DNA of 64,000 nucleotides. Source: Escherichia coli (GTDB lineage Bacteria; Pseudomonadota; Gammaproteobacteria; Enterobacterales; Enterobacteriaceae). Below, in pieces: positions 14,376 to 60,580 of the stretch. Location: the NCBI RefSeq assembly GCF_013315695.1, contig NZ_CP054353.1; one strand, given 5' to 3'. A program made the position numbers and the translations under genes. Under the pieces are notes generated by a model. It did no database searches, was not told the origin of the DNA, and saw nothing but the letters and a program-made list of their open reading frames with translations. Every line of letters begins with the position of its first letter. Positions within the stretch are counted from its first letter, which is position 1.

Positions 14376-14493
14376 GAAATATCCCACTAGTAATCATGCT
14401 TACTTAAGTCAAATTAACTACGCAATTAACCACACTTAGGTGATGCTGCCAACTTACTGATTTAGTGTATGATGGTGTTTTTGAGGTGCTCCA

Positions 14494-14769
14494 GTGGCTT
14501 CTGTTTCTATCAGCTGTCCCTCCTGTTCAGCTACTGACGGGGTGGTGCGTAACGGCAAAAGCACCGCCGGACATCAGCGCTATCTCTGCTCTCACTGCCG
14601 TAAAACATGGCAACTGCAGTTCACTTACACCGCTTCTCAACCCGGTACGCACCAGAAAATCATTGATATGGCCATGAATGGCGTTGGATGCCGGGCAACA
14701 GCCCGCATTATGGGCGTTGGCCTCAACACGATTTTACGTCACTTAAAAAACTCAGGCCGCAGTCGGTAA
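14494..14769 (+). CDS. insA: IS1 InsA (transposition inhibitor / N-terminal part of InsAB')
   Basis: 91-aa ORF, identical in all three IS1 copies. Confidence 0.95.
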
Positions 14770-15191
14770 CCTCGCGCATACAGCCGGGCAGTGACGTCAT
14801 CGTCTGCGCGGAAATGGACGAACAGTGGGGCTATGTCGGGGCTAAATCGCGCCAGCGCTGGCTGTTTTACGCGTATGACAGGCTCCGGAAGACGGTTGTT
14901 GCGCACGTATTCGGTGAACGCACTATGGCGACGCTGGGGCGTCTTATGAGCCTGCTGTCACCCTTTGACGTGGTGATATGGATGACGGATGGCTGGCCGC
15001 TGTATGAATCCCGCCTGAAGGGAAAGCTGCACGTAATCAGCAAGCGATATACGCAGCGAATTGAGCGGCATAACCTGAATCTGAGGCAGCACCTGGCACG
15101 GCTGGGACGGAAGTCGCTGTCGTTCTCAAAATCGGTGGAGCTGCATGACAAAGTCATCGGGCATTATCTGAACATAAAACACTATCAATAA
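14688..15191 (+). CDS. insB: IS1 InsB reading frame (made as the InsAB' transposase by -1 frameshift at the A6C run)
   Basis: 167-aa ORF overlapping insA in the -1 frame; slippery TTAAAAAACTC at 14743-14753. Confidence 0.95.
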
Positions 15192-15206
15192 GTTGGAGTC
15201 ATTACC

Positions 15207-17459
15207 GAAGAAGTCATTGGCAATAACATTGATATGCTGATTCCGCGGGATTTGCGTCCTGCGCATCCTGAATACATTCGTCATAACCGTGAAGGCGGTA
15301 AAGCGCGCGTCGAGGGGATGAGTCGGGAGCTGCAGCTGGAGAAAAAAGACGGCAGTAAAATCTGGACCCGTTTTGCGCTATCGAAAGTGAGCGCCGAGGG
15401 GAAAGTTTATTACCTGGCGCTGGTACGGGATGCCAGCGTAGAAATGGCGCAAAAAGAACAGACCCGACAATTGATTATTGCCGTTGACCATCTCGACCGA
15501 CCGGTGATTGTCCTCGATCCGGAACGCCATATTGTGCAGTGCAATCGCGCATTTACCGAAATGTTTGGTTACTGCATTAGCGAAGCCAGCGGTATGCAGC
15601 CCGATTCACTCCTTAACATTCCTGAATTCCCTGCCGATAACCGCATTCGTTTACAACAGTTGCTTTGGAAAACCGCCCGCGATCAGGACGAATTTCTGCT
15701 ATTGACGCGCACCGGTGAAAAAATCTGGATTAAAGCCTCTATCAGCCCGGTTTATGACGTGCTCGCGCATCTGCAGAACCTGGTAATGACCTTCTCGGAT
15801 ATCACCGAAGAACGGCAAATCCGCCAGCTTGAAGGCAATATTCTCGCCGCCATGTGCAGCAGCCCGCCATTTCATGAAATGGGGGAAATCATTTGTCGTA
15901 ACATCGAATCTGTACTCAACGAATCGCATGTTTCGCTGTTCGCGCTGCGCAACGGGATGCCGATACACTGGGCGTCATCTTCGCACGGTACAGAAGTTCA
16001 AAATGCGCAAAGCTGGTCAGCGACCATTCGTCAGCGTGATGGCGCGCCGGCGGGGATCCTGCAAATTAAAACCTCGTCAGGAGCAGAAACCAGCGCCTTT
16101 ATCGAACGCGTGGCAGATATCAGCCAGCATATGGCCGCGCTGGCGCTGGAACAGGAAAAAAGCCGTCAGCATATTGAACAACTCATCCAATTTGATCCGA
16201 TGACCGGTCTGCCAAATCGCAATAACCTGCACAATTACCTCGATGACCTGGTCGACAAAGCCGTCTCTCCGGTGGTGTATCTCATCGGTGTTGACCATAT
16301 TCAGGATGTGATTGATAGCCTTGGCTATGCGTGGGCCGATCAGGCATTGCTGGAAGTGGTCAATCGCTTTCGTGAAAAATTCAAACCGGATCAATATCTC
16401 TGTCGTATCGAAGGTACGCAGTTTGTCCTCGTGAGCCTCGAAAACGACGTCAGTAACATTACGCAGATCGCCGATGAGCTACGGAATGTGGTCAGCAAGC
16501 CGATAATGATTGACGATAAACCATTCCCGCTCACCTTGAGCATTGGCATCAGCTACGACGTGGGTAAAAACCGCGATTACCTGCTCTCCACTGCTCACAA
16601 TGCAATGGATTTTATTCGCAAAAATGGCGGTAACGGCTGGCAGTTCTTCAGCCCGGCGATGAACGAAATGGTAAAAGAGCGTTTGGTTTTAGGCGCGGCG
16701 CTGAAAGAAGCAATTAGCAATAACCAACTGAAACTGGTTTACCAGCCACAAATCTTCGCAGAAACGGGTGAACTGTACGGCATCGAAGCCCTTGCTCGCT
16801 GGCACGATCCCCTGCATGGTCATGTGCCCCCTTCACGGTTTATTCCTCTCGCAGAAGAGATCGGTGAAATAGAAAATATTGGACGCTGGGTCATCGCGGA
16901 AGCTTGTCGTCAGTTAGCAGAATGGCGTAGCCAGAATATTCATATCCCGGCGTTATCCGTTAACTTGTCGGCGTTGCACTTTCGCAGTAATCAGCTGCCT
17001 AATCAGGTGTCTGATGCAATGCAAGCCTGGGGTATTAACGGCCACCAGCTGACGGTGGAAATCACGGAAAGCATGATGATGGAACACGATACCGAAATCT
17101 TTAAACGCATTCAGATCCTGCGCGATATGGGCGTGGGTTTATCGGTAGATGATTTTGGCACGGGCTTTTCCGGATTATCCCGCTTAGTCAGTCTTCCAGT
17201 AACGGAAATCAAAATTGACAAAAGTTTTGTCGATCGTTGTCTGACCGAAAAACGCATCCTTGCCTTACTTGAAGCCATTACCAGCATTGGGCAAAGCCTT
17301 AATTTAACCGTCGTGGCGGAAGGCGTCGAAACCAAAGAGCAATTTGAGATGCTACGCAAGATCCACTGTCGCGTTATTCAGGGATATTTCTTTTCCCGCC
17401 CCCTACCCGCCGAAGAAATTCCAGGCTGGATGAGCAGTGTGTTACCGCTGAAAATCTGA
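15207..17459 (+). pseudogene. dosP: c-di-GMP phosphodiesterase DosP, truncated at the 5' end by IS1 (PAS-GGDEF-EAL retained)
   Basis: DosP reading frame begins immediately at the IS1 right end (EEVIGNNIDMLIPRDLRPAHPEY…) with no start codon or SD; about 49 N-terminal codons missing relative to the 799-aa protein as I recall it; EAL motif present. Confidence 0.8.
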
Positions 17460-59768: not shown

Positions 59769-59817
59769 TTACCTTGATGCCCGGTATTTGCTGGGCATTT
59801 ACGGTAATGACTCCAAC

Positions 59818-60321
59818 TTATTGATAGTGTTTTATGTTCAGATAATGCCCGATGACTTTGTCATGCAGCTCCACCGATTTTGAGAACGACAGCGACTTCC
59901 GTCCCAGCCGTGCCAGGTGCTGCCTCAGATTCAGGTTATGCCGCTCAATTCGCTGCGTATATCGCTTGCTGATTACGTGCAGCTTTCCCTTCAGGCGGGA
60001 TTCATACAGCGGCCAGCCATCCGTCATCCATATCACCACGTCAAAGGGTGACAGCAGGCTCATAAGACGCCCCAGCGTCGCCATAGTGCGTTCACCGAAT
60101 ACGTGCGCAACAACCGTCTTCCGGAGCCTGTCATACGCGTAAAACAGCCAGCGCTGGCGCGATTTAGCCCCGACATAGCCCCACTGTTCGTCCATTTCCG
60201 CGCAGACGATGACGTCACTGCCCGGCTGTATGCGCGAGGTTACCGACTGCGGCCTGAGTTTTTTAAGTGACGTAAAATCGTGTTGAGGCCAACGCCCATA
60301 ATGCGGGCTGTTGCCCGGCAT
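59818..60321 (-). CDS. insB: IS1 InsB reading frame (InsAB' by -1 frameshift)
   Basis: Identical protein to copies A and B. Confidence 0.95.
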
Positions 60322-60515
60322 CCAACGCCATTCATGGCCATATCAATGATTTTCTGGTGCGTACCGGGTTGAGAAGCGGTGTAAGTGAACTGCAGTTGCC
60401 ATGTTTTACGGCAGTGAGAGCAGAGATAGCGCTGATGTCCGGCGGTGCTTTTGCCGTTACGCACCACCCCGTCAGTAGCTGAACAGGAGGGACAGCTGAT
60501 AGAAACAGAAGCCAC
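60240..60515 (-). CDS. insA: IS1 InsA
   Basis: Identical protein to copies A and B. Confidence 0.95.
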
Positions 60516-60580
60516 TGGAGCACCTCAAAAACACCATCATACACTAAATCAGTAAGTTGGCAGCATCACCGGCATTTACT

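Follow-up and report, generated by a model that had tools for sequence, protein, structure and literature searches.

Three identical IS1 copies in a 64-kb region of an Escherichia coli chromosome: two with deletions beside them and one recent simple insertion

The 64-kb stretch of Escherichia coli DNA analysed here in full (the window) carries three copies of the insertion sequence (IS) IS1, called A, B and C, which were compared with the corresponding sites in other E. coli genomes. Copies A and B have no target duplication and the DNA next to each of them is missing, whereas C is flanked by a 9-bp duplication. We propose, with a probability of about three in four, that A and B are older insertions that later underwent an adjacent deletion, likely promoted by IS1, and that C is a recent simple insertion, the three copies being IS1A-type elements in an IS1-rich lineage. 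The copies are listed below, with the left and right terminal repeats (IRL and IRR) and the coding parts of the first.

14439-15206, + strand: IS1 copy A, intact; IRL 14439-14461, IRR 15184-15206
14494-14769, within copy A: insA; A6C frameshift site at 14745-14751; insB' frame to 15191
50979-51746, + strand: IS1 copy B, with the same sequence and direction as A
59803-60570, - strand: IS1 copy C, identical to A and B, inverted

A repeat search of the whole window resolved one direct and two inverted pairs into three copies of one element, each 768 bp long and, in a base-by-base comparison, identical to the others at 768 of 768 positions. Copies A and B lie 36,540 bp apart from start to start (35,772 bp between them), and C is inverted relative to both, with 8,056 bp between B and C. 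The perfect matches overrun the element ends by 1-4 nt (772 nt for A/B and B/C, 769 nt for A/C); A and B match beyond the element because the right flanks of both start with GAAG. Each IS1 end is present exactly three times in the window, for a chance expectation of 0, and there are no solo ends. The terminal repeats (IRL, GGTGATGCTGCCAACTTACTGAT; IRR, GGTAATGACTCCAACTTATTGAT) are imperfect, about 23 bp long, and match at 18 of 23 positions. The element is identical to IS1A of strain K-12 at 767 of 768 positions, with one substitution at element position 444; the IS1 copies of K-12 itself are presumably at chromosomal positions other than those of A, B and C. Gene insA occupies element positions 56-331 and the A6C slippery site positions 307-313, where a -1 shift gives an uninterrupted 232-aa InsAB' protein that matches the NCBIfam model NF033558 (transpos_IS1) with 245 bits (E = 6e-73; cut-off 100). 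The published IS1 is likewise 768 bp long, with IRL and IRR, insA from +56 to +331, an A6C motif, a 232-aa InsAB' and a target duplication of 8 or 9 bp (PMC12428005). The three copies thus have the length, the terminal repeats, the insA/insB' frameshift and the transposase of the IS1 family, the target duplication being found for C only, and, as far as their sequence tells, all of them should be transposition-competent.

The window is colinear with the chromosome of strain MSB1_4I (NZ_LR898874.1; rectal swab, Australia), from which it differs by 14 substitutions over 64 kb (99.98% identity), with private alleles on both sides. A sister isolate, AF3 (NZ_OZ547117.1), comes from a blood culture in the UK; both genomes are complete and were assembled independently. 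A text search for literature on strain MSB1_4I returned nothing but an unrelated Salmonella paper. The nearest neighbours of the window lineage include IAI39, SMS-3-5 and CE10. As comparators free of IS1 at the sites of A, B and C we used MS 21-1, which is the closest (99.9% identity in the flanks), and XH992. The lineage is rich in IS1, with at least 40 IS1 match pieces in MSB1_4I, AF3 and two further close relatives, and at least about 39 IS1 places in each of the sister chromosomes; the comparators are poorer, MS 21-1 having 18 extra places and XH992 about 8. Searches for junctions and intermediates covered 5,426 complete E. coli genomes, only two of which, MSB1_4I and AF3, carry the IS1 copies of the window.

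Missing DNA was found at both A and B, and the remnants of the interrupted genes are as follows.

15207-17459, + strand: dosP remnant without its N-terminus, directly beside the IRR of copy A; nothing is left of dosC
50364-50978, + strand: 5' fragment of the sulfatase gene with the metallo-beta-lactamase (MBL)-fold domain, ending at the IRL of copy B (converted from 2486008-2486625 of the MSB1_4I record)
51747-52721, + strand: 3' fragment of the sulfatase gene, from the IRR of copy B onwards

Compared with MS 21-1, copy A replaces 1,809 bp, that is all of dosC and the first 135 nt or so of dosP, and copy B takes the place of 387 internal bp of an alkyl/aryl-sulfatase gene, which is intact (1,977 bp) in XH992 and MS 21-1. 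The flanks of A (CCACACTTA on the left, GAAGAAGTC on the right) and those of B (GCGCCAGCC and GAAGCTCTC, respectively) contain no target duplication. Apart from the gaps at A and B and an overlap at C, all of the window is colinear with MS 21-1 and XH992, in the same orientation. Each of the two therefore still occupies its original surroundings, except that 1,809 bp next to A and 387 bp next to B are gone, so that the missing duplications are not traces of an exchange between copies: the flanks indicate that A and B lost their duplications through local deletions and not through a swap of flanks, be it between the two or with C.

Just outside the window, 25 bp past its end, MSB1_4I and AF3 have a fourth copy, D (window-equivalent 64025-64792, + strand; 2472197-2472964 of the MSB1_4I record). 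It differs from A, B and C at two positions and is without a target duplication, and the DNA beside it lacks 236 bp, among them the 5' end of ortT.

We compared these copies with IS1 insertions of other lineages in the same neighbourhoods. Eight independent insertions, none more than about 1 kb from site A, B or C, were examined, and each has a duplication of 8-9 bp and no deletion; since they all keep their duplications, the lack of duplication at A, B and D goes with the deletions and is not an effect of the site. The nearest of them to A, in 65COLEC, is 9 bp from the left junction of A and has an 8-bp duplication. When other genomes with IS1 near the sites were counted (at least 80% coverage), there were 8 near A, 3 near B and 11 near C. 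The neighbourhoods hit independently (about 13.4-16.2 kb, 50-52.7 kb and 58.8-61.6 kb in window terms) comprise the digH-dosC spacer, dosC, the region upstream of the sulfatase gene, mcbR and the 3' end of pqqU. Gene mcbR is split by IS1 at two or more different positions in other genomes, and two genomes of other lineages share one dosC site and its duplication, CGCGCCACG, with IS1 variants that are 99.6% and 94.5% identical to that of the window.

The sister isolate AF3 differs at copy B. The right (IRR) junction of B, IS1 followed by GAAGCTCTC, is identical in the window, MSB1_4I and AF3. The left (IRL) junction in AF3 is 15,144 bp further left, inside a porin gene (window position 35834; AF3 locus 27005), and the following segment is thus missing from AF3.

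35835-50978: segment deleted in AF3, 15,144 bp, from the interior of the porin gene to the IRL of copy B

This loss covers leucine-rich-repeat (LRR) genes, narU, narZ, narH, narW, narI, yddE, nhoA, yddH, pptA and the 5' fragment of the sulfatase gene. The only structural variant seen among the relatives is therefore a one-ended, IS1-anchored deletion, with a fixed IRR and a moving IRL, and not an event between copies. Taken together, the IS is kept at the joint, the flanks are colinear and the duplication is absent at A, B and D relative to MS 21-1 and XH992, and at B one junction is constant while the other is variable, as expected of adjacent deletions. Copy A of AF3 (AF3 locus 5610-6380) has a 1-bp indel and its transposase is annotated as frameshifted, which may be a real inactivation or a homopolymer error of long reads.

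Copy C has the features of a clean insertion, its target site being duplicated as follows.

59794-59802: left target duplication of C, GGCATTTAC, 9 bp; single copy in MS 21-1 and AF3
60571-60579: right target duplication of C, GGCATTTAC, 9 bp

Read in the orientation of the element, both flanks are GTAAATGCC. The copy lies between pqqU (=yncD) and mcbR, two convergent genes with a spacer of 35 bp, and disrupts neither of them, and the alignment with MS 21-1 shows at this point the 9-bp overlap that is the signature of a simple insertion. AF3 has an empty site with a single GGCATTTAC here; because it does have A, D and the right junction of B, C is the youngest copy and inserted after AF3 had split off.

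An earlier note on this DNA had described three identical IS1 copies, of which A and B are direct repeats 36.5 kb apart and C is inverted relative to B, bracketing about 8 kb. All of this was borne out, and sequence differences too large for homologous recombination are ruled out by the complete identity of the copies. The gene content that it gave for the intervals agrees with the annotation of MSB1_4I, and the flanking 9-mers confirmed that A and B lack target duplications and that C has one. Its view that C is the most recent simple insertion, drawn from that duplication, is now independently supported by the empty site of AF3.

Adjacent deletion promoted by a resident IS1 is a long-known activity of this element. 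Deletions of this kind in the gal region were reportedly described by Reif and Saedler in 1975, and replicative (adjacent) deletions by IS1 are said to have been studied by Turlan and Chandler in 1995. Applied to the window, IS1 would first have inserted simply at A and at B, and the DNA beside one IS end would have been lost later. In such an event, one end of the resident IS1 would attack a nearby site on the same molecule (intramolecular transposition), the DNA in between would be lost together with one of the two target-duplication copies, and IS1 would stay at the new joint. The same process, acting again or independently at the IRL of B in AF3, would have removed 15.1 kb. The simple-insertion ancestor at B would read, for example, TTAACGAAGCTCTC, then IS1, then GAAGCTCTC; written with the element ends, it would be TTAACGAAGCTCTC, IRL to IRR, GAAGCTCTCAATT.

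Judged from the arrangement of the junctions, the deletions were most likely driven by the transposase and preceded by simple insertions. Several points weigh against this. No intermediate, with IS1 at A or B, a duplication and no deletion, was found in the 5,426 genomes, the clone being sampled by only two of them, and the other genomes with IS1 near A or B have it at different positions, always with duplications. In addition, the final sequence would be alike for a transposase-driven deletion, for recombination between two nearby IS1 copies and for a one-step insertion with deletion. Missing duplications have been ascribed mainly to adjacent deletions or to inter-IS recombination (PMC11708052).

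Recombination on a short scale could have had the same outcome if a second IS1 in the same orientation had landed near A, B and D each time and homologous recombination had then deleted the segment between the two, which is the mechanism of the earlier note at small size. The product would be exactly that of an adjacent deletion, inter-IS recombination is a documented cause of missing duplications (PMC11708052), and repeated IS1 insertion in these neighbourhoods does occur, with IS1 lying within 1 kb of A or C in 8 to 11 other genomes. However, this explanation needs same-orientation pairs 236, 387 and 1,809 bp apart at three of the four copies, and a fourth pair 15 kb apart in AF3; if some 40 copies were scattered at random over 5.3 Mb, pairs as close as 0.2-1.8 kb at three out of four copies would be very improbable. 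Moreover, none of the 5,426 genomes searched carries such an IS1 pair, and OZ546925 and OZ546911, two close relatives rich in IS1, contain no additional IS1 anywhere in the interval, as judged from match spans. We thus regard paired insertions as an unlikely origin of the deletions. It is quite improbable, in turn, that IS1 was inserted at the deletion joint as the deletion formed, in one step and with no prior simple insertion ('IS-Del'), although for A and D this would be possible. Deletions accompanied by IS movement, with no duplication left behind, have been described, and insertion into strand breaks was proposed for them (PMC11708052), and a one-step event is consistent with the finding of no intermediates. 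Nevertheless, those cases of that study that come from the E. coli long-term evolution experiment (LTEE) could without exception be assigned to adjacent deletion, and IS1 was involved in none of them. A one-step event also misfits B: as its IRR is shared by AF3 and the window and the IRLs differ, at least one of the two states was derived from an already resident IS1.

A large-scale origin of the arrangement, through recombination or replicative inversion between the copies, or through transposition of A to B as a Tn9-like composite, has very little to commend it, even though A and B are direct repeats without duplications whose right flanks both begin with GAAG, and B and C are inverted. Exchange of flanks between A and B, or a replicative inversion giving the B/C pair, was rejected on the grounds that every segment between IS copies has the order and orientation found in the IS1-free MS 21-1 and XH992, and no recombinant junction was present in the 5,426 genomes. 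A large-scale origin is also at odds with the direct duplication that C has to itself. The composite transposon was likewise rejected: the 9-mers bordering the A-B unit (CCACACTTA and GAAGCTCTC) differ from each other, and the block has not left its native locus on the chromosome. A broader claim, that IS1 here makes duplication-free copies by single insertion-with-deletion at DNA breaks, or that A to B can move the 36-kb ddp-fdn-nar block as a giant Tn9-like transposon, would be a long shot; if true, its one-step version would extend 'IS-Del' (PMC11708052) to IS1 in natural isolates. Finally, identical repeats are a classic source of misassembly, but the chance that the copies are assembly artefacts is next to nil. 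A is present in both MSB1_4I and AF3, B and C in MSB1_4I, and the right junction of B in AF3 as well, so that the same junctions are found in independent complete assemblies, with private single-nucleotide polymorphisms (SNPs) on each side. Adjacent deletion beside resident IS1 copies, likely promoted by IS1, accordingly remains our preferred explanation for A and B.

The earlier note had also presented the copies as substrates for recombination with each other. With their perfect 768-bp homology and suitable orientations, A, B and C are in principle potential RecA substrates: recombination between A and B would give a 36.5-kb deletion or duplication, B and C would invert 8 kb, and A and C would invert 44.6 kb. 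Copy D adds further pairings, namely an inversion of about 3.4 kb with C and deletions with A or B. According to the Prokaryotic Genome Annotation Pipeline (PGAP) annotation of the MSB1_4I chromosome (99.98% identical to the window), from which we took gene names, the A-B interval contains truncated dosP, ddpXABCDF, osmC, bdm, sra, maeA, adhP, a RelE/ParE-HigA pair, fdnGHI, yddG, the porin gene, LRR genes, narU, narZ, narH, narW, narI, yddE, nhoA, yddH, pptA and the 5' fragment of the sulfatase gene. The B-C interval contains the 3' fragment of the sulfatase gene, a GGDEF gene, yncG (a pseudogene), ansP, yncE and pqqU. We know of no gene essential in K-12 that lies between the copies.

Three chimeric junction queries were built, which joined the digH flank to the sulfatase 3' flank (A-B deletion), the sulfatase 5' flank to inverted pqqU (B-C inversion) and the digH flank to inverted pqqU (A-C inversion). 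None of these junctions was found in the 5,426 complete E. coli genomes. As the copies are present in just two of these, the test is a weak one, and missing recombinants are weak evidence on the rate. The window genome and MSB1_4I, despite 14 SNPs in 64 kb, do not differ by any inter-copy rearrangement. Hence the homology and orientations put forward by the earlier note stood, its deletion and inversion products were not encountered in this set, and recombination between copies is a plausible prediction, not an observation. In the same way, the comparison of IS1 positions in related genomes that it had suggested showed C to be the youngest copy, but the change it brought to light was the one-ended deletion at B and not an inter-copy event.

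The RelE/ParE-family toxin and HigA (yddM) antitoxin pair lies at 28151-28713, inside the A-B interval, and losing it might penalize an A-B deletion. XH992 lacks the toxin gene (gap at 28002-28424), and the 15-kb deletion of AF3 ends short of the pair. A block equivalent to about 26.9-50.1 kb of the window, 96% identical, is carried by plasmid pECTOK-001_1 (NZ_AP018396.1, 176.6-197.3 kb); it comprises adhP-higA-fdnIHG-yddG through narZ, narH, narW, narI-yddE-nhoA-yddH-pptA, immediately beside ISEcp1. This suggests a one-ended capture by ISEcp1 of a block lying between A and B. Plasmid capture of the A-B block by IS1 was considered and rejected, as the related block on this one conjugative plasmid adjoins ISEcp1 and not IS1. 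Two large records listed in PLSDB as 'non-mobilizable plasmids' (CP141085.1 and CP054253.1) have long chromosomal synteny from digH to yddH and look like mislabelled chromosome fragments.

Other features of the window were observed in passing. Four of the seven SNPs private to the window relative to all relatives are clustered within 440 bp of gadB (10517, 10868, 10937 and 10955); gene conversion from gadA to gadB was considered as their source, but with K-12 gadA as the reference the alleles do not match. Gene yncG (about 53.9-54.5 kb) has an internal stop in the clade formed by the window lineage, AF3 and MS 21-1. The region from 36 to 39 kb is low in GC (35-41%) and contains leucine-rich-repeat genes, two of which are pseudogene fragments.

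In conclusion, the window shows nothing out of the ordinary for IS1: the element expanded recently, inserted cleanly once and anchors two deletions (three with D), and both the elements and the mechanisms are established. The elements are already annotated in RefSeq and nothing here is new in kind. The window offers a small, clean natural example of chromosome erosion by an expanding IS1 population, in which the oxygen-sensing cyclic diguanylate (c-di-GMP) pair dosC/dosP, a sulfatase gene and ortT were lost, and, in the sister AF3, the whole narU-narI (nitrate reductase Z)/nhoA block. The case further illustrates that, where an IS lacks its target duplication, a local deletion is a better reading than an exchange with a distant copy.

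The copies resemble IS1A and IS1E of K-12 in their 768-bp length, 23-bp imperfect terminal repeats, insA, A6C -1 frameshift and 232-aa InsAB', and, for C, in the 9-bp duplication. As in Tn9-type transposons, two direct, intact IS1 copies flank a segment, here of 35.8 kb; unlike them, the segment is at its native locus and there is no duplication around the whole IS-cargo-IS unit. IS-mediated rearrangements in E. coli B during the LTEE were reportedly analysed by Schneider et al. in 2000. Like IS-rich lineages such as E. coli B in the LTEE and Shigella, the window lineage has many identical IS copies, frequent copies without duplication and gene loss beside IS (PMC11708052), although in contrast with those cases no inter-copy deletion or inversion has been realized in the relatives sampled here. 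The closest likeness is to the adjacent deletions promoted by IS1. Those studied earlier differ in that here the strains are natural isolates, the dependence on the transposase is a presumed one and no pre-deletion intermediate was observed. In both, the IS is kept at the joint, a fixed junction goes with a variable one, the duplication is absent, and the deletions measure between hundreds of bp and 15 kb.

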